Positions 25,958-63,700 are shown, counted from the first letter of the stretch. The stretch: DNA of 64,000 nucleotides from a virus (IMGVR_UViG_2506381017_000002), one strand, 5' to 3'. Numbers and translations are program-made. The notes: a model not told the origin generated them from the sequence alone.

Positions 25958-26024
25958 TGGGACGGGTGGGATTCGAACCCACGACATTGTGCACTTGTTC
26001 TACCAAACTGAACTACCGACCCTG
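25958..26024 (-). pseudogene. tRNA-like element (truncated anticodon arm; probable tRNA pseudogene)
   Basis: Acceptor GGGTCGG/CCGTCCC with one mismatch; D arm GTTC-AGTTTGGTA-GAAC; T arm GTGGG-TTCGAAT-CCCAC. Only ~65 nt, with about 8 nt missing between the D and T arms. Confidence 0.4.
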
Positions 26025-26295
26025 CTTGCTTTAGTACATTCAGAAAGCATTCCAAAGATCTTATTTTAAGCTCACAAATTTATTACACGGATAGGAGCTA
26101 GGTTCTACGTTTACCTGAATCGCCGTGGTTTCTATAAGAAATTTCTAACAACGAGGGAGCTACCCTCCGGCTACATATTAACGGTGGTGTAACCTTAGAT
26201 GCCACGTTTCCATTTCAATTAAGAAGGTTGATAAAAACCTTTCATCACTGCGCTATAGCGCGTCTGCCAATTCCGCCACTCCGGCGATTCAGAAT

Positions 26296-26440
26296 TTGAT
26301 CCTATACGCCAGAGGTAGGACTCGAACCTACAAAATCTATAGCATTTTGTGACTATGGAGTAGACGGGAGTCGAACCCGTGTCCAACCAAACCAGTTTCC
26401 AAATACATTTTAGACTTATTAGGATTATGTACTTAATTCT
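26296..26440 (-). other. two abutting tRNA-like elements of non-canonical structure
   Basis: T-arm-like CACGGG-TTCGACT-CCCGT plus CTACTCCA at ~26356-26400, directly followed by hairpin ACAAAAT-GCTATAG-ATTTTGT plus T arm GTAGG-TTCGAGT-CCTAC plus CTCTGGCG at 26307-26355. No matching 5' acceptor strands were found. Confidence 0.3.
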
Positions 26441-26791
26441 TAAATCAAAATAGTCACATAATCATTTTCCAAAGACTATTTTAATCGATCTAGTTTTAAT
26501 ACTTAGTCACACTTAAACTAGCAAATCATGAACTAAGACCAGAGGGGTGAAATGTGATAGCTAGTATCCTTATCTGGTATCAAGATATTAACCAAGTGCC
26601 TATAAGCTAGGCAGCTAAAGCTGTAACTCTATGGTTATTTGCTTTTATATTTAAATGAAAGTATTTCGGCGTTATCTTCCGTAAGTCGTATTTAGGGCTT
26701 TATTTGACTGTCGAATCCATAAACTACCCCAGAATAGAGCTTTAAATCATAGCTCCAAATAATAATTCAAATAGACTTCTTGATGAAGTCT

Positions 26792-26865
26792 ATAACATAG
26801 AAGGGATTTGAACCCTTGCTCTTACCCGCTAAGATAAAGCTCTACCAAGCTGAGACTTACTATGT
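26792..26865 (-). tRNA. tRNA-like gene (74 nt; perfect acceptor and T arm, internal arms not resolved)
   Basis: Acceptor AACATAG/CTATGTT 7/7, T arm AAGGG-TTCAAAT-CCCTT, D-loop-like CAGCTTGGTAGAGC. I could not fold the anticodon arm by eye. Confidence 0.45.
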
Positions 26866-27209
26866 TACTTATATATCAAAATATTTCTTGTGGTGGAACC
26901 CCTAACAGCTTTTGCCTTATTCCACATTTATTCCTACTAGCTTCATAGGATGGGCATAGTCCTTATCCCTGCTAAGGGGGCGCTGTCGTTACTCGCTGAA
27001 TATTTTAATATGTTCTTGTTAAGGGAGACTCATTTCAAGACCTCAACATCGGTCGGTTGAATGACTACTTACGCGCTAAGGATGTATACTATCCTTTCAT
27101 CATCTTCCCACCTGGTAGCTAACCCCACTCACGGATTCCGCACATGACTACGCTCCGTCAGCGAATATTGTACCTGTCTTTTATAAAATCCTGATTTTAA
27201 AAACCAGAA

Positions 27210-27282
27210 TGGACCTTGCAGGACTCGAACCTACGACCGAGCGGTTATGAGCCGCCTGCTCTACCAACTGAGCTAAAGGTCC
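27210..27282 (-). tRNA. tRNA-Met (anticodon CAT; could be Ile2 if lysidinylated)
   Basis: GGACCTT-TA-GCTC-AGTTGGTA-GAGC-A-GGCGG-CTCATAA-CCGCT-CGGTC-GTAGG-TTCGAGT-CCTGC-AAGGTCC-A gives a full canonical cloverleaf; no encoded CCA. Confidence 0.9.
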
Positions 27283-27428
27283 AAAATTTAGAGAACACGA
27301 TTAATCACTTCATGTTCTCAAAGTAACAAGGATAGTTGATTAGTCCTATCGCCGAGACGCCCATTCAAGTGCGTTGCTCTCCTTTACATACCAACCACTA
27401 CATTCAAAGCGTTGACGCTTGCTACTCT

Positions 27429-27515
27429 AACTACGAAGACAGGATTCGAACCTGCAACCTAGGATCAAGTTTTATCGGTGTACACCCCTATGCTCTAGCC
27501 AATTGAGCTACTTCG
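27429..27515 (-). tRNA. tRNA-like gene (~87 nt, long-variable-arm type; anticodon unresolved)
   Basis: Acceptor TACGAAG/CTTCGTA 7/7, D arm GCTC-AATTGGCTA-GAGC, T arm GCAGG-TTCGAAT-CCTGT; 36 nt between the D and T arms that I could not fold unambiguously. Confidence 0.4.
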
Positions 27516-27888
27516 TAAGAATAATGTCCACCCAGAAACGTTAGATGGTGAACTGATAAGTTAAGAGCTTGTTGACTGTGCTAAGTATCAGTCTGATTAC
27601 TCTTAGAGCTTATATCTTTTTGATGGACATTGACTTAGCAATTCTGTCCACGAATGATTAATTAGTAGGTTTACCACCAACCTACCTTGTAGAAACGCCG
27701 TTAAGCTTTCGTGGTCATGGTCACTCATTCTACTTTCACGGGGTTTGCCATGACACAAGCCGCTTGGTTTTTCTTAATAGCCTGACTAGGGCTACCAAAA
27801 TACAACAACTACCAATGGGCAGTGAAACGCCATGATTTAGGCGTATATCCAAATTCACTTGGTGTTCTCCTTGCATACCAAGGAGAAT

Positions 27889-27950
27889 AGCTTGGGAGGG
27901 AATTGAACCCTAAACGTACGCTGGCACCCTGCCATTATCACCAAGCCCCA
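27889..27950 (-). pseudogene. truncated tRNA-like element (~60 nt)
   Basis: Acceptor GGCTTGG/CCAAGCT and T arm TAGGG-TTCAATT-CCCTC, but only 26 nt between; no D or anticodon arms. Confidence 0.3.
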
Positions 27951-28800
27951 AACATAATACATGTATCGTTTTCGTTACTGTATTTTTACGTGCCAGTTGA
28001 AAACTGTTAATAAAAGTCGCAATGCACGGGCCCGTAGGCCATTGCCGTTTTGATAGGCTCGGCAACCTCTATATAAGACCGTTTTATTTTAACGGTGACG
28101 GTGCACCCCATCATTCAACCAATTAAGAGAGGGTTGATTCTCTCGACAATAACTGTCGATTAAGGAGTCAAGCTCCACGTTAATCTGATTAATCTTTAAC
28201 AAGACAGCCTCTTTCTTATCTGTCATACCTATTTCTTTTGCATTCACACGAACACCGAGGTGGGTAATTATTCTGTATTTCGAAGCCCTACGTGAGCCGT
28301 AATCAGATTTTATAAAAGAAGCATTTTACAGATGTATCTCCGTATGTTTATAGGGCTGGGCGCTGATTTAACAATATCTAGCCGATTTCAAGAGGTGATC
28401 AACCCCTCTAGCGCACTTGTTCATCGGGTATCCAACATGTCTCGTCCCGGGAAGCCCACACTTCCAGTGTAAGAGACTATATCTTCAAATACTTCCCGCC
28501 ATTAAATGACTTGCAATCTTATGTTTGTATTATTCAGGGTGTAGATTACTAGATCACCCGAACCCGCAACCTGAGAATTAAACCCAGCATTAACTTAGGC
28601 AATATCTGCATCGCAGGTAGTCGCACACGCAACCATAACAATAAGAAGCGTGGCATCAATCACATTACGAGCATTAGAAACTCCTCCAGTTGTGAGTAGG
28701 ATACCTCGTATAAATCACATTACTGCCATTTATACTCAAGCGCTTCAACCGACATACCTGTTGCCGGTTTTCCTATTATACATATCCATATAACAGAAAC

Positions 28801-28885
28801 ACCTAGAGAGGGATTTGAACCCCCGAACCCGAAGGAACGGTTTTGGAGACCGTCGCGTTTGACCAGACTTCGCTATCTAGGTATT
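28801..28885 (-). tRNA. tRNA with long variable arm and anticodon CCA (85 nt)
   Basis: ACCTAGA-TA-GCG-AAGTCTGGTCAAA-CGC-G-ACGGT-CTCCAAA-ACCGT-TCCTTCGGGTTC-GGGGG-TTCAAAT-CCCTC-TCTAGGT-G. The acceptor is a perfect 7/7, the D stem is 3 bp (class II like) and the variable arm is 12 nt. A UGG reader with class II architecture is unusual. Confidence 0.6.
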
Positions 28886-29037
28886 AATAACGTGCCATGC
28901 CAGCGTAAACACGTTATTAGATCGAATTGAAAAATGTAAAGGTAAAGGTATATGGAAAATATAACCTATTGAACATACGTTAGGTGTTTTTACATTCCAA
29001 ACGTTTTCCGTCATTTGGAACAACCTATTACTAGGAA

Positions 29038-29110
29038 TTTCGGTAATGGGAATCGAACCACATATCTACACTACATAATGTTGCTCTACCATTGAGCTAT
29101 ACCGAACCTT
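29038..29110 (-). tRNA. tRNA-like gene (T stem imperfect)
   Basis: Acceptor TTCGGTA/TACCGAA, D arm GCTC-AATGGTA-GAGC, anticodon-like ACATT-ATGTAGT..., but T stem TGTGG/CCCAT is mismatched. Confidence 0.3.
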
Positions 29111-29179
29111 GTCAAGATAAGACCACACATATCTTATCTGACTAACCAATCTTTCATATTTCGGAGGTGCTTAACCATG

Positions 29180-29260
29180 AAAGGAGTTCCCCAGCCCAAC
29201 CACTTAGCTGGGAATAACACAAAACGGAATCGAACCGCAGTGTGCCAACAAAAGTAGATA
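29180..29260 (-). other. tRNA-like fragment(s)
   Basis: CGG-TTCGATT-CCG T-loop-like motif and a D-loop-like GCTAAGTGGTTGGGC; no complete cloverleaf found. Confidence 0.2.
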
Positions 29261-29339
29261 AAAAGAAATGACAATTTATGAATCAACAATTTTTGATTAT
29301 CAAACACAGCACGTAAATGTTTAATAATTTCGGGCATTT

Positions 29340-29420
29340 CTGCCCTATGCGAAGCAGAGGAGTCGAACCTCTGTAAAGGACAAACATGGATGATTAAAAA
29401 TTAGAAAGGTGTGTTTGTAT
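29340..29420 (-). other. tRNA 3'-half-like element
   Basis: T arm AGAGG-TTCGACT-CCTCT plus acceptor 3' strand GCTTCGC-A; no matching 5' strand within 400 nt. Confidence 0.25.
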
Positions 29421-29500
29421 TATCAATTTAAAAGATATATAGGGAGTGTGTACTTCCAAAATGTACGTATTGCCTTTCCACTCTTCGCGATAGACCCACT

Positions 29501-29573
29501 TGGACTCGAACCAAGGTTGGTAGTTTAGAAGACTACTGTTCTATCCAGTTAAACTATAGGTCCATAATCAGGA
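29501..29573 (-). tRNA. tRNA-Arg (anticodon TCT)
   Basis: GGACCTA-TA-GTTT-AACTGGATA-GAAC-A-GTAGT-CTTCTAA-ACTAC-CAAC-CTTGG-TTCGAGT-CCAAG-TGGGTCT-A; all stems pair (two G-U wobbles in the acceptor); 73 nt. Confidence 0.85.
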
Positions 29574-53564: not shown

Positions 53565-53921
53565 TTAGTCTTCTAATTCTTCGATAGCATCATCAATCGC
53601 TTGACTTAATACATAGCAACGCAAGGAAACATCAATTGATTCATAGCAATCATCAAGCCACCATTCAGCAGTTTTTTGACGGTCCATAAACCCTTCATCA
53701 ATTGCTTCGCGGATTAAGTCCTTGTTATCATCAACGTATTCCTTGGCTTTGTTGGCGTTGAAAGTATATGATCCTGAGCCATTACCAGTTACAGAATCTT
53801 CGATCCAAAGTTGTTCGTTGAGTTCTTCACGATCAACCTCGTTGACATTGATTTCGTTGTCCTTGATGAAGTCGATTACATCGTTCTTAACATTTTCAAA
53901 GTAGTCATATTGTTGTGTCAT
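53565..53921 (-). CDS. acidic hypothetical protein
   Basis: 118 aa. Confidence 0.45.
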   Translation of the reverse strand: MTQQYDYFENVKNDVIDFIKDNEINVNEVDREELNEQLWIEDSVTGNGSGSYTFNANKAKEYVDDNKDLIREAIDEGFMDRQKTAEWWLDDCYESIDVSLRCYVLSQAIDDAIEELED

Positions 53922-53984
53922 GATATTTACCCCTCAATTAATATATTTTAGTATTTTTGTTGTGATTAATAGTGTAAGATTACA

Positions 53985-54197
53985 TTAGTTTAGCAAGTTC
54001 GTCAATAGTACCCGTAGAAGTGGTAAGGTCACTGCAATAACAATAACTGTAATGAATACAGCTAAAATACTGTACTTCTTGAACCTGATTAGCCTTTCGC
54101 TATCTCGTTCTAACTGCTTAATGTATTCAGGATCAACCAACTTGTAATCCTGTTCAGCGTATTTCTGTAGTTCCTTTTGTGACATCATAATTGTCAA
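53985..54197 (-). CDS. small membrane-anchored protein
   Basis: 70 aa with a C-terminal TM helix. Confidence 0.4.
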   Translation of the reverse strand: MTIMMSQKELQKYAEQDYKLVDPEYIKQLERDSERLIRFKKYSILAVFITVIVIAVTLPLLRVLLTNLLN

Positions 54198-54719
54198 AAC
54201 CTTTCTAATTTGCTTCAGCGGTTATTATTAATCGCTTTATATAGAGTCTTATCGTGTTGATAAGGCTCTCTAAAAACAATTAATAGTGTCTTTTTCACTT
54301 TCACAGGCTTAAACCAAGGAATATTAGCAAGTCCCTGCTGGTAGTATCACGGTGCCTTTATCTACTATTGATTAGGCGGTTGACGTGGAATCACCTCCCC
54401 CTACCGTACCGGGTTATTTACCAACTTTTGATATTGCGGAGTTGTTCTCAGTTCTACTGAAAGATTGAACCGCCGTTATTTTGTTTTCAAAGTTCAGCAT
54501 ATGTTGGTTTGAAAGTGATTGAGTATGCTCTCGCTCACACTGTCCGCCACCTTAACTTTTAGCTTGAATACAGTTATGGCTTTATCCTGCCCTAGGTGAT
54601 ATATGGAATCCTACACCCTTGCGGTTTATCAAGTTATTATGTTAAGCCTGTTCAGCCCGTTGACTTTTGCGACTTGTTAACGTTTTTTGAATTGGTAACT
54701 TTCCAATTAGTTTGAACAA

Positions 54720-55490
54720 TTTTATATAACATCGTAAGTTATATAAGGATAACCTTTTATTTCTTAATCGCTTCAAGGCTTGCGATTGCCTGCTCCTTTA
54801 TCGTGTCTTTATTATAACTTCCGATGTTATAATTGTCAAGACTTAATTTTTTGAATTGTAGCGGTTGACCTTGAAGTCAAAGTTAGATACTCAAGTGAAC
54901 TCACTTTCAATCCATTTATTAAGTTTGTGCTTTTTATTATAACTTCGTAAGTTATAAATTGTCAAGAAGTAAATTTGATTAATTTTTAATCACCTAGGCT
55001 AGTTCGATGACTGCTCTTTATTGTGATTGTCCTAATCAACTTTACGGCTTTATTATAACTTCCGATGTTATAAATGTCAATACCTTTTTCAAATTATTTT
55101 TGATACCTGGTATTTATTGCCGTTGTCCTTTTGACGATTCCAATTATAACATCGCAAGTTATAAAGTCAACTATTTTTTGTAAAAAAATAAGAGTAGTTA
55201 TAATAACTACTCTTGTAATTCTTTTAGGCGCTTATCTAATTCAATTTTAAACTCTTTCAAATCACTGATATAAGTATCTCTTATATCTATATTAGATTTT
55301 ATTAATTGATATAATCTTGTTTTAGATGATGGGCGAATAAAGCCCCCCGCCTCACTCTTACGCTTCCAATAGTAAGCTTTATCTGGATTAGCTTTTTCAT
55401 AATTCTTTTTTGCTTGTTTTTGTGCTTCACTAACCAAGACTTCACCTCCTTTTTACTTTATAACATGGTAAGTTATAAGTATTATACCAT
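54720..55490. repeat. array of six TTATAAC-N7-GTTATAA palindromic promoter/operator elements
   Basis: Copies at ~54731, 54810, 54943, 55076, 55144 and 55462. Several embed TGTTATAAT/TGTTATAAA extended -10 sequences, and several are followed by ATTGTCAAG. Confidence 0.6.
55207..55437 (-). CDS. small basic protein (TTG start), candidate regulator; inverted paralog of the plus-strand gene at 56715-56912
   Basis: AAAGGAGGTGAA RBS; one TTATAAC-N7-GTTATAA element sits between its -10 and its RBS. The C-terminus ...DKRLKELQE matches ...ERLKELKK in the paralog. Confidence 0.5.
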   Translation of the reverse strand: MVSEAQKQAKKNYEKANPDKAYYWKRKSEAGGFIRPSSKTRLYQLIKSNIDIRDTYISDLKEFKIELDKRLKELQE

Positions 55491-56714
55491 ACTCAACAGA
55501 AATAAAACTACACAATCAGTAATTGACTATTACAATACTTAAGTTTAAAATTGTTATATCTCCTTGAGTAAGGAGGTGACAACATGAAACATAATGAAAA
55601 AGAAAAGAAACAACCCTATAAGGCTTTTTACTTTGAGTGTAGCCTAATAAAGTTATTTCTTAAAATCATCATTATAAAGTAGTGTAATCACTTCCCTGAG
55701 TTGTTGTGTGACGGCTCAACCCAGGGAGATTTTTATTACAATTACATTATATCACAATTTATTGTGGTATTATATATTTGTTGATATGATATTACTAGAT
55801 TGTTATAATATAGATACAAGAAAACCCCTAAAGGTTGTTAACTTGTCCGTTAACCTTTAGGGCGGTGAGTTATTCACTACTTAATAATAAAGAATTTAAA
55901 GAATAATCTTAAAAGGCTGAACTCGCAATATACAACCTTAAAAGATTGTTCTTTTTTCTTTTTATTGTTCATGTTCCCACCCCCTTTCCTTAAGGGGTTA
56001 AAATAATTTAAACATCGTTATTTCTGAAAGTCAATAATTGAAAAAGAAAAAGCCAAAACGCAAAAGTAAAAAACGTTAAGGCTTAAAGGCTTAAAAGCTT
56101 ACATATTGAGGGAACGTGGCGCCGTTCCCTTTTTGTATAATTATCATATCATACTTACAACCCTAACAGAATAGAAAAATAACACCCCTTTATTTTTCTA
56201 TATAAGGAAGAAAAAACATAATAAAAAAACGATAAAGAAAAAAATAAATATACATGTTGACAACATGAAGAATTGTGTTATTATAATATACGTAAGCTAT
56301 TAATATAGTTTACAAGGCGACACACTAACAACAAATAATAAAGGTTTGAGGTGGTCAAATTGTATTCTATATTGTTGCATGCTGCAACCTTGTTTAGTTT
56401 GGTAAGTGGTGGAATTCTGGCGATAGTAACATCAATCGAAAAAGTTCTTATCATAAAAGAAAAAGCCCACAAGTCAGATAAGGACAAGGGGCAAAAATAA
56501 CTTACATTTATGAATATTTGGGAAGTGTTGCGACCACTTCCCTTTTTCTACAGTGTTATAATAACATAATAAAAAGGGTGTGACAATATGAAATGGATCA
56601 TATTAATTGGTCTATATCTTTTCGGGTTTGTTTGTCTAACGGTTGCGATCAAAAAGGCGAGAAAAATATATAATACTTTAAAGCATAATAAATAATTAAA
56701 ATAAATATAGAATT

Positions 56715-56912
56715 ATGGAAAACAAACAAAACAAAACAAGTAAAGCAAAATTACAAGCAAATAAACGCTATCAAGAAAGACATAAAAAAGAAGTTTATCG
56801 CAATCAGAAAAAATCTAGGGCGAAAAATTTTCTATTGAATGATGCAAGGATTGACGAACTAGAATTTTTTTCTGAATTAATTTCTGAAAGATTGAAAGAA
56901 TTAAAAAAATAA
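56715..56912 (+). CDS. small basic protein, inverted paralog of the minus-strand gene at 55207-55437
   Basis: 65 aa, K/R-rich then IDELEFFSELISERLKELKK. Confidence 0.45.
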   Translation: MENKQNKTSKAKLQANKRYQERHKKEVYRNQKKSRAKNFLLNDARIDELEFFSELISERLKELKK

Positions 56913-56939
56913 TAATAGTAATTAGGGTAATGCGTTAGT

Positions 56940-57620
56940 GTTTAGCGTGTTGCCCTTTTGTATTGTGGTTATATGATAACGCTTACATAGTGATGTATAG
57001 CAGTGTATAGGTATTACAGTGATATGTATATAGTAGCGTGCATAGTGTTGTTATGATAGTGATATATAGTAGTGTTATTTGTGTCTGTGTATAGATGTAT
57101 ATAGGTTAGTGAGTGAGTAGTGTTACATAGTGATATGCATAGTGAAGTAATATGATAGTGTAGTGATGTATATAATGTATTGAGTTAGTAACTGATTTAC
57201 GTTTGTAGATATTAGATTGTCAAGGCTGAGAGTGAGTGCGGTGTATGGGGTGTAGTGTGATTAGTATGTTTGATATATGATAATGTTTTCATATGTTATT
57301 GTAATGATATAGTAAGTGAGTAGTATATTGATATGTATGTATTGAGTGAGTAAGTAGGCGGATTGCGTGAGTGTGTTTGGTTAGTTAGTTATTATATTAG
57401 GGGTGTGTATTAAGTTACGTTTGTAAATTTTAAATTGTCAAGAGTGAATTTTTATGGTCTGGGTTTATTATTGTGTTGGTTGTGATATGTATTAGTTAGA
57501 TTTTATTTATTAGGGGTGTGGGTGAATTATTGGGCGGTGTTAGGTTAGGTAAACGGTTATTATATTAATTTATTGGGTGTTTGGTGTGGTGTGTGAGTAT
57601 GTGTGAACATTTGTTCATAG
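56940..57620 (+). repeat. cytosine-depleted GT/A-rich degenerate repeat tract
   Basis: About 2% C over ~650 bp on the top strand; reiterated GTGATA / TAGTG / GTATAG units; two copies of TTACGTTTGTA..ATTGTCAAG. Confidence 0.6.
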
Positions 57621-59997: not shown

Positions 59998-60387
59998 TTA
60001 CGATAACATGTCTAAATTAGGCCTGTTTTTCAATTTAGAACTCAAAGAACTGTCATCAGTTTTAGAGTCATTATCGTTTTTCTTATTTCCAATTCTTGTC
60101 CTTAATTTGCGCTTGGGCTTTTCTTCAACATCGACATCATCATTCTCTTCTACCGACGTCTTTTCTTCTAGTTTTGAAACTGAGTTAATAGTACCTAACT
60201 GTCCATCTAAGCTTGCACTATCTAAAATAGCTTGGATAAGATCACCAGTTCCATATTTCCTAACTACCATTTCTAATGCCCTAATAGCAGCCGGAGAAAA
60301 TTGTGACTGGTTTTTAGACCATTCTGCAACTTTTGAATCCTCGGGAATAAGGATAGTTTTTCTAATCATTTTCGCCATAAAAATCAC
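59998..60387 (-). CDS. putative ParR-like centromere-binding adaptor (type II partition)
   Basis: Immediately downstream of the actin-like ATPase; N-terminal basic ribbon-helix-helix-like segment and acidic/Ser-rich tail. Confidence 0.4.
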   Translation of the reverse strand: MIFMAKMIRKTILIPEDSKVAEWSKNQSQFSPAAIRALEMVVRKYGTGDLIQAILDSASLDGQLGTINSVSKLEEKTSVEENDDVDVEEKPKRKLRTRIGNKKNDNDSKTDDSSLSSKLKNRPNLDMLS

Positions 60388-60392
60388 ACTCT

Positions 60393-61604
60393 CTATAAGG
60401 CTTCAACAATTACTTGTAATCCTAATTCATTTAAATATTGTGCATATTCCTTATCAATCCAAATTACTGGAACATCATATCCACCACTGAAGCTCTTAAG
60501 TTTTTCGTTCAATACTTCGCGAAGATTACTCTCATCTAGCATTGGAATGGAACCACCACCATATACGTAAACAAGTTCAGTATCCTTAGCGATACGCATT
60601 GTTTGACTAACTGTATCGATAATCTTGTCAGCTAATGGTTCTAATTGGTCGTAAACAACTTGACGTACTTTATCTTGGCGAGCTCGACGCAATGGACTGA
60701 CCTTTTCAGATAAGAAACTCTGTAATTGTGAACGTTCCTCAAAATTCATTTGTTGATCTTGAAGAACACGCACTGCATCTTGTAATACATTTCCGTATCC
60801 TTGTGGTAACGAAGCTGATGCTGCTGGATTAGCTTTACCGTTAATAATTGCTACTACATCAGTAGTCCCTTCTCCGATATCAATTCCAAGTACATTTCGT
60901 GAATTAATAAGGTCGTCAGCTCCAACTTCATCCTTCATTTCTGAATAGTTCTTATCAAAGTCTTCCTTAATTTTATCTGTTAATCCATCATAATCGGAGG
61001 AAATAAGCATTTGGGCTGTTTCACCTTCTAATGCAACATATACTTTATTAAATTCAATGGTTACATTAATTGGATCCTTAAAGTTATGGAAAGTTACTGT
61101 ATGCGTACTACCCATGTAACGTTCTTTGTAACGATCTTTTGCATTATTAACCTTACCTTCTGAAATAGGTAACGCAGTCGCCATATTAACTTTTACCTTT
61201 AGAGTCTCCTTTAAGTCTTGTCCAGCTTCATATGCTTCTTTTACTTTCTTTCCAGCTATCAAACTTAAAGTAAGAATAATTGCTAAATCTGTTTCTGATT
61301 TACCAGTAAAGTCATTAACATCAAAAGCCCTCATAGATAGACCACTGTCGATCGCAGCATTACCAATTAAAAATCTTCCAGAGGTTTTTACTGCATTACT
61401 TGACACACTAACGTCCATGTTATTAAGAAAGTTCTTCATATATGTATCTTGATCTTGTTTAGAATCAAATTCCATAGGAGCTTGTACATCTTGTGGACGT
61501 TCTGCTGCTATAACTGACGGAAACTTAATATTTTCACCATCAACATTTGCTTTTACAGAACCATATCCCAAATCATTTGCAACCTTCATAATCTTCTCAA
61601 CCAT
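60393..61604 (-). CDS. actin-like ATPase (ParM/Alp-family segregation protein)
   Basis: N-terminal phosphate-1 motif KVANDLGYGSVKA, later VLGIDIGEGTTDV and VYVYGGGS (actin-fold phosphate-2/adenosine motifs); 403 aa. Confidence 0.65.
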   Translation of the reverse strand: MVEKIMKVANDLGYGSVKANVDGENIKFPSVIAAERPQDVQAPMEFDSKQDQDTYMKNFLNNMDVSVSSNAVKTSGRFLIGNAAIDSGLSMRAFDVNDFTGKSETDLAIILTLSLIAGKKVKEAYEAGQDLKETLKVKVNMATALPISEGKVNNAKDRYKERYMGSTHTVTFHNFKDPINVTIEFNKVYVALEGETAQMLISSDYDGLTDKIKEDFDKNYSEMKDEVGADDLINSRNVLGIDIGEGTTDVVAIINGKANPAASASLPQGYGNVLQDAVRVLQDQQMNFEERSQLQSFLSEKVSPLRRARQDKVRQVVYDQLEPLADKIIDTVSQTMRIAKDTELVYVYGGGSIPMLDESNLREVLNEKLKSFSGGYDVPVIWIDKEYAQYLNELGLQVIVEAL

Positions 61605-61704: not shown

Positions 61705-61825
61705 CTTCTTTTTGATTACCACAATGTTAATAATACTATGTATTTAACATAATGTAAATAACATTTAACACTTTTAGAAAGTTTTATGAAGGCAAATAAA
61801 AAACGCTTTGGTAGCGTTTCATAGT

Positions 61826-62155
61826 TTACTTAAGGCTTTTAGACATGTAGTCCTTTTGCTCTAATATATTATACATTCTATCAAATCGAGTTTTTTCACT
61901 CTCGTTTAATTCAGCAATTTCACTCTCAATCATATGTTCGACAACTGCCTTTGCATTTTTTGCAACACCAAGATTAATTAAGGCAGAAACCTTATTACGA
62001 ATATGATTGTCAACACGTATATTAACTGGAAAGGACACTTCTTTATTGTCTGTTAAGATGTCTTCTTTTTTTGTTATCTCCTTGAATGATGGCTTTGCAT
62101 CTACCTCACTATTTTTCAAGGAATTCTTTGATTTAGCTGGCTTTGATATTGCCAT
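61826..62155 (-). CDS. small ParB/ParG-like centromere-binding protein (partner of ParA)
   Basis: 109 aa; overlaps the ParA stop; basic N-terminus and predicted RHH-like C-terminal region. Confidence 0.45.
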   Translation of the reverse strand: MAISKPAKSKNSLKNSEVDAKPSFKEITKKEDILTDNKEVSFPVNIRVDNHIRNKVSALINLGVAKNAKAVVEHMIESEIAELNESEKTRFDRMYNILEQKDYMSKSLK

Positions 62156-62967
62156 TATTCATGTGCCTCCTTAATACGCCCTAAAAGTTCAACTGCAACT
62201 TCTTTATAAACATTGAGAGTTTTTTTGTCCCATGCATCTCTATCTTCTGTAATACCTGTGACGTCATAATTTTTAGCTCTTTCCATAATCCTAATATGAC
62301 TATTAAAAACGTCAGCTCCCCATTCTTCTCTTGATTTTTCCAAAATCAATTGATCGACTTTAGCATTGTCTTTAGATAAAACAGGAACAACTGCTAATAC
62401 TTCTGTGTCAGCAATATACTCATCAATTATGTCGTCTTGAATATATTCAATAAAGTCTTTTGCATCGTCAAAAGCTCTTTGTTGAGTTTGAAGAACAATT
62501 ACTAATTCGTCACAAGCATACAAAGCTGTATCATTTTGTAAACTCAACGTAGGACTAACATCTATAAAAATGTAATCATACTTGTCCTTTATATCACTTA
62601 GCTTATTTTTAAAGGATGCGACACGCTCCTTTTCATTAAGATAAGCATGTTCAAGATATCTAGGATATAGATAAAAATCACTAGCAGTTGGGACAAGATA
62701 AAGATTATCCATTACCTGAACTGTAACATTATCCAAACTTTCATTATCTTTAATAGCGCTCATTAGCGTCTTGTTAAATGATAAAATCTCATCAGACTTT
62801 TGACTCTTTGTCTTTACCATCAATGTTGTCAAATCTGCCTGTGGATCAAAATCAATTAATAATACCTTATTCCCCATTTTTGCCAAACTATACGCTACCA
62901 ATGCAGTGGTCGTTGTCTTACCAACACCACCCTTTTGATTACACATTGAAATTACTTTTGCACTCAT
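62155..62967 (-). CDS. parA: ParA/Soj-family partition ATPase
   Basis: Deviant Walker A MCNQKGGVGKTTTTALVAYSLA; 270 aa. Confidence 0.85.
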   Translation of the reverse strand: MSAKVISMCNQKGGVGKTTTTALVAYSLAKMGNKVLLIDFDPQADLTTLMVKTKSQKSDEILSFNKTLMSAIKDNESLDNVTVQVMDNLYLVPTASDFYLYPRYLEHAYLNEKERVASFKNKLSDIKDKYDYIFIDVSPTLSLQNDTALYACDELVIVLQTQQRAFDDAKDFIEYIQDDIIDEYIADTEVLAVVPVLSKDNAKVDQLILEKSREEWGADVFNSHIRIMERAKNYDVTGITEDRDAWDKKTLNVYKEVAVELLGRIKEAHE

Positions 62968-62979
62968 TTCAATTCCACC

Positions 62980-63700
62980 TCACCTATTTATTAAGTACTA
63001 TAATATCAAACCTTTCGGATTGTGTTAAGTGTAATATGTAATGTATATTATATGAATCGCATAAAACTACACAAAAGTGTTAAATGTGATTTATATAATG
63101 CATAATGTGAAATATATTATTAATTATAAATTATGTATAAAACATATCCCATTATATATAATGTTTTTAATACTATACATAATGGGATATACACGACTTA
63201 TTAATATCTATTGACTTTTTAGGTTTTTGATGGGATTATCTACTTGTAACAACAAACTATCCAAATGTGTTACAGGTGAGAGTTATTTATATGATTGGCT
63301 CACACAAAACAATTTTATATCTGCCCGAAAATAAGTCACTATCAAAGTATATGTTCGTGAGATAGTGTTATTTAAGCGTGATTTAATATGGTTCACGCAA
63401 AATATATTGAACATTATTGTTATATTGCTATTTAAATTCGGGTATGGTATCTTATATTACATACCACAATAAGTGGTATTTTAGGCGAACCAAGTTTGAG
63501 AAGGATTAGGCACCCTTTGATAACTATTACAACTGAATAAAGAGTATAAAAAAAGACCCAACCATTAGGCATTTGGTTAGATCGACAAAAAACTTTTATT
63601 CATATATTGTATGTATTTATAATACCATACTTTGTCGATTAATCAATAGGTTGAGCTTGTTTTCTTATACTCATTTTCAAATAAATGATTAGGAGAAAAA
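62980..63700. repeat. AT-rich centromere/origin-like region with inverted and direct repeats
   Basis: ATATCCCATTATAT ... ATAATGGGATAT inverted repeat at ~63143-63195, and GTGTTAA(G/A)TGT(A/G)AT direct repeats at ~63023 and ~63078. Confidence 0.45.

Follow-up and report, generated by a model that had tools for sequence, protein, structure and literature searches.

A putative Aca13-family repressor switch over a tandem promoter bank on a Limosilactobacillus reuteri plasmid

We conclude that the palindrome array of the window (the whole 64,000-nucleotide stretch of DNA analyzed here) and the small gene beside it probably, at about 0.8, form a repressor-operator switch on a Limosilactobacillus reuteri RepA_N-type plasmid, in which a 76-aa repressor of the Aca13 family would gate a bank of tandem promoters. 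The anatomy of the locus, the strand of its promoters, the co-variation of its operators with the adjacent protein and the homology of that protein to Aca13 all emerged from the sequence and its comparison with relatives.

The window falls in an L. reuteri plasmid family (rep_cluster_2483) with a RepA_N initiator and both ParA/DUF5388 and ParM, some members of which have also been entered in IMG/VR. Phage-like genes of replication and nucleotide metabolism are also present in the window, as are seven tRNAs and one tmRNA. The comparison set consisted of about 14 related plasmids or contigs, which are given L numbers where they have to be told apart.

The palindrome array and its promoters

When up to 2 mismatches were allowed, a search of the window for TTATAAC-N7-GTTATAA returned 6 matches where 1.26 would be expected, a number that 0 of 100 shuffles reached. 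The six palindromes claimed in the earlier note are thus present and restricted to the locus. Its description of each element as a perfect 7-bp inverted repeat held for five copies (zero mismatches, starting at 54812, 54937, 55053, 55144 and 55458) and failed for the copy at 54724, where the two outermost positions deviate (2 mismatches). All six copies have an intact core TATAAC-N7-GTTATA, of which no further instance was found outside the array in the 64-kb window, even when 1 mismatch was allowed. The features of the locus, in the order in which the minus strand is read, are as follows.

55458-55489, minus strand: own promoter-operator of the 76-aa gene, with the extended -10 TGGTATAAT at 55481-55489 and the palindrome at 55458-55478
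55207-55437, minus strand: gene of the 76-aa protein, the Aca13-family repressor candidate, with a TTG start and the RBS GGAGGTG at 55443-55449
55190-55214, minus strand: intrinsic terminator, an 11-bp stem followed by ATTTTTTT
55143-55170, minus strand: predicted promoter P4, TTGACT-N16-TATAAT (11/12), with the operator at 55144-55164 spanning spacer and -10
55052-55080, minus strand: predicted promoter P3, TTGACA-N17-TATAAT (12/12), with the operator at 55053-55073
54936-54965, minus strand: predicted promoter P2, TTGACA-N18-TATAAT (12/12), with the operator at 54937-54957
54811-54839, minus strand: predicted promoter P1, TTGACA-N17-TATAAT (12/12), with the operator at 54812-54832
54724-54744, no strand assigned: terminal operator-only copy, ATATAAC-N7-GTTATAT, lacking a -35 and lying ~70 nt downstream of P1
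54198-54723, minus strand: non-coding leader of ~525 nt, separating the first ORF from the promoter bank
53985-54197, minus strand: first ORF of the operon, 70 aa, membrane-type, with a C-terminal hydrophobic helix
53565-53921, minus strand: second ORF, 118 aa, very acidic (pI 4.05)

In P1-P4, as in all relatives, the palindrome takes up the spacer and reaches into the -10; its promoter-proximal arm GTTATAA plus a T makes up the -10 hexamer. Judged by their boxes (TTGACA and TATAAT) and their spacing of 16-18 bp, these are predicted sigma-A promoters. Only three sigma-70-type promoters with a 12/12 match were predicted in the 64-kb window, and all of them lie in the array (P1-P3); in the whole plasmid pLr03, 12/12 promoters are likewise confined to its array. 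The 22 nt upstream of each -35 in the bank are 77-86% A+T, resembling an UP element.

Neither an RBS-preceded ORF nor a terminator was found in the 90-125-bp segments between the promoters, which indicates that P1-P4 are tandem promoters feeding one long leftward transcript rather than the several tiny transcription units that had been proposed. On the minus strand, the next 10 kb contained no promoter match of at least 10/12 and no convincing terminator.

The terminator at 55190-55214 divides this bank from the 76-aa gene unit, directly upstream of it, which encodes a basic protein (pI 9.6). As the earlier note had stated, one palindrome copy (TTATAAC-TTACCAT-GTTATAA) lies between the -10 and the RBS of this gene; it covers roughly -5 to +16. 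Because of this position the gene is probably autoregulated, in keeping with what had been suggested for it. The same layout of extended -10, plasmid-specific palindrome and RBS is repeated in 12 relatives; the own-promoter operators are degenerate in L004 and L006.

Operator types, adjacent proteins and Aca13

Every relative has the same order of elements, namely the small gene, the terminator, 1-4 tandem consensus promoters, the promoter-less site and the leader. The -35 boxes, -10 boxes and inter-promoter flanks are orthologous between plasmids, and the palindrome set among them switches between ~8 types.

TTATAAC-N7-GTTATAA: window, L008-13, L016, L017 and L029
ATATAAC-N7: L003
TTATAAC-N6: L001 and L005
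TATAGCG-N4-CGCTATA: L004
TATAGAC-TTAA-GTCTATA: L006, L007 and L018
TATAGGC-N4-GCCTATA: L026
TATAA[A/G]C-N4: L002
ACTGTAC..ACAGTAC, with the -10 changed to TACAAT: L031

In all 12 plasmids for which both sequences were at hand, the palindrome at the small gene is of the same type as those of the bank, and in a 12 x 12 matrix of own-operator against array scores each row scored best within its own class. The promoter-less terminal copy keeps its position in all relatives, each time with the palindrome specific to its plasmid, and in the complete 83.7-kb pLr03 that plasmid's version of the operator is found at 5 homologous positions only. Compared with proteins of the N6 and N7 classes, those of the N4 classes have in common an insertion of 2 residues and a deletion of 3. 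In helix 1, the positions of K10 and K11 of the window's protein vary between K, I, V and T along with the inner bases of the half-site. As far as sequences can tell, therefore, operator type co-varies with the adjacent 76-aa-type protein. The same tandem-bank layout was absent from distant IMG/VR members of the protein family (L019-L025, 30-34% identity), so that this arrangement may be peculiar to the plasmid group of L. reuteri.

The earlier note had also pointed to an inverted paralog of the small gene, and the two proteins are indeed true paralogs: BLASTP aligned them with E = 3e-5, and both match phrog_2277, a PHROG without an assigned function. The paralog belongs to a rightward operon of small genes.

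56253-56284, plus strand: promoter of the paralog operon, TTGACA-N16-TATTAT, with the invariant palindrome CATGTTGACAACATG over its -35
56715-56912, plus strand: gene of the 65-aa Aca13-family paralog, the last of the operon

Identity across four operator types is 83-91% for the 65-aa protein, but only 49-67% for the 76-aa-type protein; specificity thus tracks the gene adjacent to the array. The use of the TTATAAC palindrome by the paralog, which the earlier note had entertained, is unlikely in view of this missing co-variation, and the 65-aa protein is probably not the binder of that palindrome. Its own candidate operator is the CATGTTGACAACATG palindrome.

Pfam gave no match for either the 76-aa or the 65-aa protein, and megablast and tblastn searches of a phage collection with the locus and the 76-aa protein gave none. 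A profile search of 1.84 billion representatives collected 186 small proteins, and hmmsearch with the family profile matched, among PDB sequences, residues 91-141 of 8YE6 chain B (AcrIIA32, "A32") with E = 8.5e-5. This segment is the Aca13 domain, which has no HTH (PMC12282945). In BLASTP against the Aca13 segment, the 65-aa protein reached E = 5e-6 and the 76-aa protein E = 4e-5, in a remote alignment of ~31-37% identity over 30-51 residues; the motif [KR]-S-x-A-x-x-F-[IL] is common to the family and Aca13. An AF2 model of the 76-aa protein is all-helical, with four helices and a pLDDT of 95; it showed no HTH, and comparison of the model gave no match to a known fold. By these comparisons the 76-aa and 65-aa proteins are Aca13 homologs and candidate non-HTH repressors.

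In EMSA, Aca13 binds an inverted repeat that lies in acr promoters between their -35 and -10 boxes, and reporter assays show that it represses these promoters; mutants were tested as well, and its dimeric, DNA-bound mode is an AlphaFold 3 model (PMC12282945). K92, W99, R107 and S111 are essential in AcrIIA32 (PMC12282945). Three of these four residues are not conserved in the 76-aa protein, where K92 corresponds to Q6, R107 to A21 and S111 to K25, and W99 is kept as an aromatic residue (Y13). In the 65-aa paralog the first two positions are conserved (K12 and Y19) and the others are not (V27 and Q31). The loss of critical residues is compatible with a different specificity without proving it; the positions may be specificity residues, which would be expected to vary. 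Together, the co-variation of operator type with the small protein and the Aca13 homology bear out the idea that the palindromes are promoter-embedded operators, as predicted from the sequence.

The repeats might instead be a by-product of tandem duplication of a promoter unit of ~100 bp, reflecting TATAAT-like self-complementarity and having no dedicated binding protein. The units are clearly paralogous duplicates, they number 1 to 4 depending on the plasmid, and the -10 dictates the outer TATA of each arm. Within one plasmid, however, all copies have the same arms but different 7-nt centers and flanks, and between plasmids, where the flanks are orthologous, the arms of all copies have changed together. 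Since this concerted change extends to the non-duplicated copy at the small gene and to the promoter-less terminal copy, duplication alone is insufficient, and we consider this explanation very improbable. It is scarcely credible that the palindromes serve as plus-strand extended -10 promoters (TGTTATAAT) for several tiny rightward units, which is how the earlier note had read them. The plus-strand strings that it named were all located (TGTTATAAT in the copy at 54812, TGTTATAAA in the copy at 55053 and ATTGTCAAG after the copies at 54812 and 54937), and the first of them, at 54824-54832, is a perfect plus-strand extended -10. But TGnTATAAT occurs in only one of the six copies, and the plus strand offers no -35 and no RBS-preceded ORF downstream; its ORFs at 55007-55183 and 55131-55250 cross palindromes and the terminator at 55190-55214 and are not conserved. 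The minus strand, by contrast, has 12/12 promoters, with TTGACA and TATAAT at a fixed register, in all relatives. Read on the minus strand, each palindrome is followed by CTTGACAAT, which makes ATTGTCAAG simply the reverse complement of the -35 box TTGACA. The promoters had thus been assigned to the wrong strand.

Also highly improbable, in our judgment, is a role of the palindromes as centromere-like (parS/parC) sites of a partition system of the window, with any effect on transcription being secondary. Two partition operons do lie 5-7 kb from the array.

59998-61604: partition system of ParM plus a 129-aa adaptor
61826-62967: partition system of ParA plus a DUF5388 protein

In some Firmicute plasmids, for example pSM19035 with its omega protein, repeats embedded in promoters act both as operators and as centromeres, and such double use would favor a centromere here. 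Each par operon of the window, however, has its own, different upstream repeats (TGTTAAAT before parM and ATATCCCATTAT...ATAATGGGATAT before parA), and ParM is 98-99% identical in plasmids with differing palindromes. The palindrome type follows the adjacent small gene instead, and every copy stands in a fixed register to -35 and -10 boxes. Two further candidates were rejected. Replication-origin iterons were ruled out because each element is a palindrome tied to a promoter; the RepA_N initiator gene of pLr03 is ~7 kb away, past both par operons. A reading of the palindromes as RNA hairpins was likewise considered and set aside.

Proposed switch, leader and downstream operon

In the repressor-operator switch that we favor, the 76-aa protein would act as a free-standing dimer of the Aca13 family and bind each palindrome; both the binding and its dimeric stoichiometry are our inference. 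A bound dimer would occlude the spacer and -10 of P1-P4 and exclude RNA polymerase, because the palindrome fills the spacer and its arm forms the -10. The repressor would be made from a short unit of its own (extended -10, operator at about -5 to +16, RBS, ORF and terminator), at which its binding would result in autoregulation. The four bank promoters would be read leftward into the leader and then into a long string of small genes. In a newly entered cell, still free of repressor, the bank would fire hard in a transient burst until repressor from the weaker, autoregulated promoter had accumulated; it would then be shut off and stay silent during maintenance. The promoter-less fifth operator may be a roadblock or a cooperativity site, and the operator types may have diverged under selection to evade the repressors of related plasmids already resident in the cell. 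Relatives of the window have been typed as non-mobilizable plasmids, an observation that counts against the burst model with respect to the route of entry into a repressor-free cell.

The 70-aa ORF is the first gene after the leader in all relatives. In five of them the second gene encodes ArdA (PF07275, E = 2.4e-16), and in the window this slot is held by the 118-aa acidic ORF, beyond which there is a long string of small, mostly ORFan genes. The 118-aa protein showed no similarity to ArdA on comparison and had no solved relative. The earlier note had spoken of a host-takeover-like region. The array does head an early or establishment-type gene block, and plasmid establishment or anti-restriction, as suggested by ArdA in five relatives, describes it better than host takeover. 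Among the downstream genes of the window, which are ORFans in Pfam and PHROGs, no anti-defence gene and no Acr was recognizable; this absence counts against a putative anti-defence operon.

The leader has a length of 520-545 nt in all relatives, even where alleles share no more than 57% identity. Its 5' hairpin (54690-54708) and long 3' hairpin (54226-54285) are invariant, its center exists in at least three divergent, mosaic alleles, and the GC content of its central part is 0.43, against 0.29 in the array. Folding z-scores were modest, about -2 in each of the three divergent alleles. Double changes were counted in 15 of 68 consensus pairs; such compensatory counts are soft because the alignment between alleles is unreliable.

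It is possible, if rather unlikely, that the switch works as proposed and that the main product of the bank is the leader itself, as an abundant structured RNA serving as a processive-antitermination element or an anti-defence RNA. The conserved length, the invariant terminal hairpins, the GC-enriched core, the z-scores and the double changes would all suit such an RNA, as would a position, size and GC enrichment like those of EGeRS1 (PMC8708921). The modest size of the z-scores, the unreliable inter-allele alignment and the lack of an Rfam match speak against it, and no terminator follows the leader, which must therefore at least also be a 5' UTR. On this doubtful reading, the bank may mainly serve to fill a cell just entered with copies of a large structured RNA that would be new, typical of Lactobacillaceae plasmids and related to EGeRS1 in function, acting in cis, as a processive antiterminator of an operon of >10 kb, or in trans, against host defence; separately, and with as much reserve, the ~8 protein-operator alleles may represent a natural specificity code for a new non-HTH fold.

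Searches for the identity of the leader gave little. Rfam had no match at the gathering score in the window, leader included, and only chance-level matches at E <= 10 for 53900-55600. The leader sequence showed no similarity beyond L. reuteri plasmids, and a genome-wide scan with its 5' hairpin returned mostly unrelated matches, Trichococcus among them. ROOL and GOLLD, considered as possible identities, were not found, and a link to viral sgRNAs was dropped because nothing connects the two.

Relation to known systems

The nearest known system is Aca13 itself, which was characterized only in 2025, in streptococcal prophages (PMC12282945), and occurs there as the C-terminal domain of AcrIIA32 and as free-standing homologs (PMC12282945, PDB 8YE6 chain B). 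Apart from sequence homology, the two systems share a small, basic, all-helical protein without an HTH, an inverted-repeat target in the -35/-10 spacer of strong counter-defence promoters and regulation of the protein's own expression, the last two being predictions here. In contrast to Aca13, the proteins described here are free-standing with 73-78 aa, carry an extra helix and a loop insertion, and are encoded by Lactobacillaceae plasmids rather than streptococcal prophages. Their operators lie in 1-4 tandem promoters, at a promoter-less site and in their own promoter, and the genes downstream are ArdA (in relatives) and ORFans, with no anti-CRISPR gene recognized among them. The HTH-type repressors Aca1-Aca12 follow the same logic of a strong promoter, an inverted-repeat operator and an autorepressor, which limits the strong acr promoter after an initial burst (PMC12282945). 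They differ in their HTH fold, in usually acting on a single promoter and in the place of the aca gene, downstream in the same operon.

On the Bacillus pumilus plasmid p576, the autoregulated repressor Reg576 (EGeRS2) holds anti-restriction and establishment promoters off, and entry of the DNA leads to a transient burst until Reg576 has accumulated (PMC6294495, PMC8708921). A small autoregulated plasmid repressor in control of several strong, operator-bearing promoters is likewise predicted here. Reg576, however, belongs to the ribbon-helix-helix proteins, and two of its dimers bind dual TTATCCC heptamers; the four promoters of p576 head separate, scattered operons instead of forming a tandem bank before one operon, and p576 is conjugative. 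EGeRS1 of the pLS20 family is a GC-enriched, non-coding element of 400-600 bp, rich in inverted repeats and situated immediately upstream of the RBS of establishment genes (PMC8708921). The 525-nt leader is analogous to it in place, size and GC enrichment; it has no sequence similarity to EGeRS1, and it is preceded by four predicted promoters whereas EGeRS1 lacks a strong sigma-A promoter.

Several strong tandem promoters are also found at the head of the early region of phage T7, where A1, A2 and A3, all used by the host polymerase, lie within a few hundred bp before gene 0.3, which encodes the anti-restriction protein Ocr. Unlike the bank described here, the T7 promoters have no repressor operator and are shut off by other mechanisms.

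The Aca13-type switch is therefore known, and what appears to be new is its wiring to a tandem promoter bank on plasmids. The comparisons suggest that the Aca13 family is used on Lactobacillaceae plasmids, there on an operon of the anti-restriction or establishment type rather than on acr genes; that it is wired to up to four tandem consensus promoters and a downstream promoter-less site; and that it has at least eight putative operator specificities, set in a promoter scaffold that is conserved in other respects. The pairs of matching protein and operator constitute a data set on how the Aca13 fold reads DNA and could supply compact, potentially orthogonal repressor and promoter parts for lactobacilli. 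With almost all of the downstream genes being ORFans, the family could also serve as a marker of anti-defence genes in L. reuteri plasmids.

The non-coding leader and the operon of the 65-aa paralog

54198-54723, minus strand: non-coding leader of ~525 nt, between the bank of four tandem promoters and the first ORF
56253-56284, plus strand: promoter of the rightward operon
56351-56912, plus strand: genes of that operon, encoding two small membrane peptides and the 65-aa Aca13 paralog

Comparison of the leader among related plasmids and contigs revealed that its size is kept at 520-545 nt and that the hairpins at its 5' end (54690-54708) and 3' end (54226-54285) are without variation, with a GC-richer core between them that exists as at least three alleles, divergent and mosaic. 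The folding z-score was approximately -2 for each allele, and a search of Rfam returned no match for the leader. In position, size and GC enrichment, the leader is like EGeRS1, the non-coding GC-enriched regions upstream of establishment genes in pLS20-family plasmids.

In the rightward operon, the palindrome CATGTTGACAACATG lies over the -35 element of the promoter and was invariant in all four plasmids checked; it is a candidate operator for the 65-aa paralog. We also found that distant family members (30-34% identity; IMG/VR contigs L019-L025) carry two Aca13-like genes in tandem on the same strand, preceded by a promoter similar to that of the rightward operon. Because of this arrangement, the divergent layout of the two Aca13-family paralogs in the Limosilactobacillus reuteri plasmids looks to be derived.

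Small proteins and peptides around the promoter bank

53565-53921, minus strand: 118-aa very acidic protein (pI 4.05, 32 D+E)
55584-55682, plus strand, and 55877-55972, minus strand: convergent genes for two paralogous peptides of 31-32 aa

The acidic protein occupies the slot that ArdA holds in relatives. Its family, with over 1000 clusters, occurs in Firmicute mobile elements and in Caudoviricetes and includes fusions to PF14207 (DpnD/PcfM). A possible role for the protein is anti-restriction by DNA mimicry.

Both peptides are rich in lysine at the N-terminus and end in a hydrophobic tail, and their genes lie inside an insert of ~700 bp that is missing from related plasmids. A strong plus-strand promoter at 55781 is predicted to produce a transcript antisense to the peptide gene on the minus strand, an arrangement that resembles type I toxin-antitoxin systems.

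Repeat arrays and the tRNA/tmRNA cluster

61740-61790 and 63144-63190: candidate centromere or operator repeats of two partition systems
26353-26730, minus strand: tmRNA gene (75 bits)

These candidates are repeats of TGTTAAAT upstream of parM and a palindrome, ATATCCCATTAT...ATAATGGGATAT, upstream of parA/DUF5388. In a further stretch of ~600 bp (56875-57500), conserved in plasmid pLRI01, GC skew is extreme (+0.63 to +0.84) and direct repeats of a degenerate TAGTGATATG / CATAGTG motif are numerous; an origin, a set of iterons or an array of protein-binding sites are possible readings.

On this otherwise RepA_N plasmid, seven tRNA genes and the tmRNA gene are clustered at 25958-29563 (minus strand), near phage-like replication genes (DnaB-like, RecD-like and sliding clamp) and genes of nucleotide and NAD salvage.
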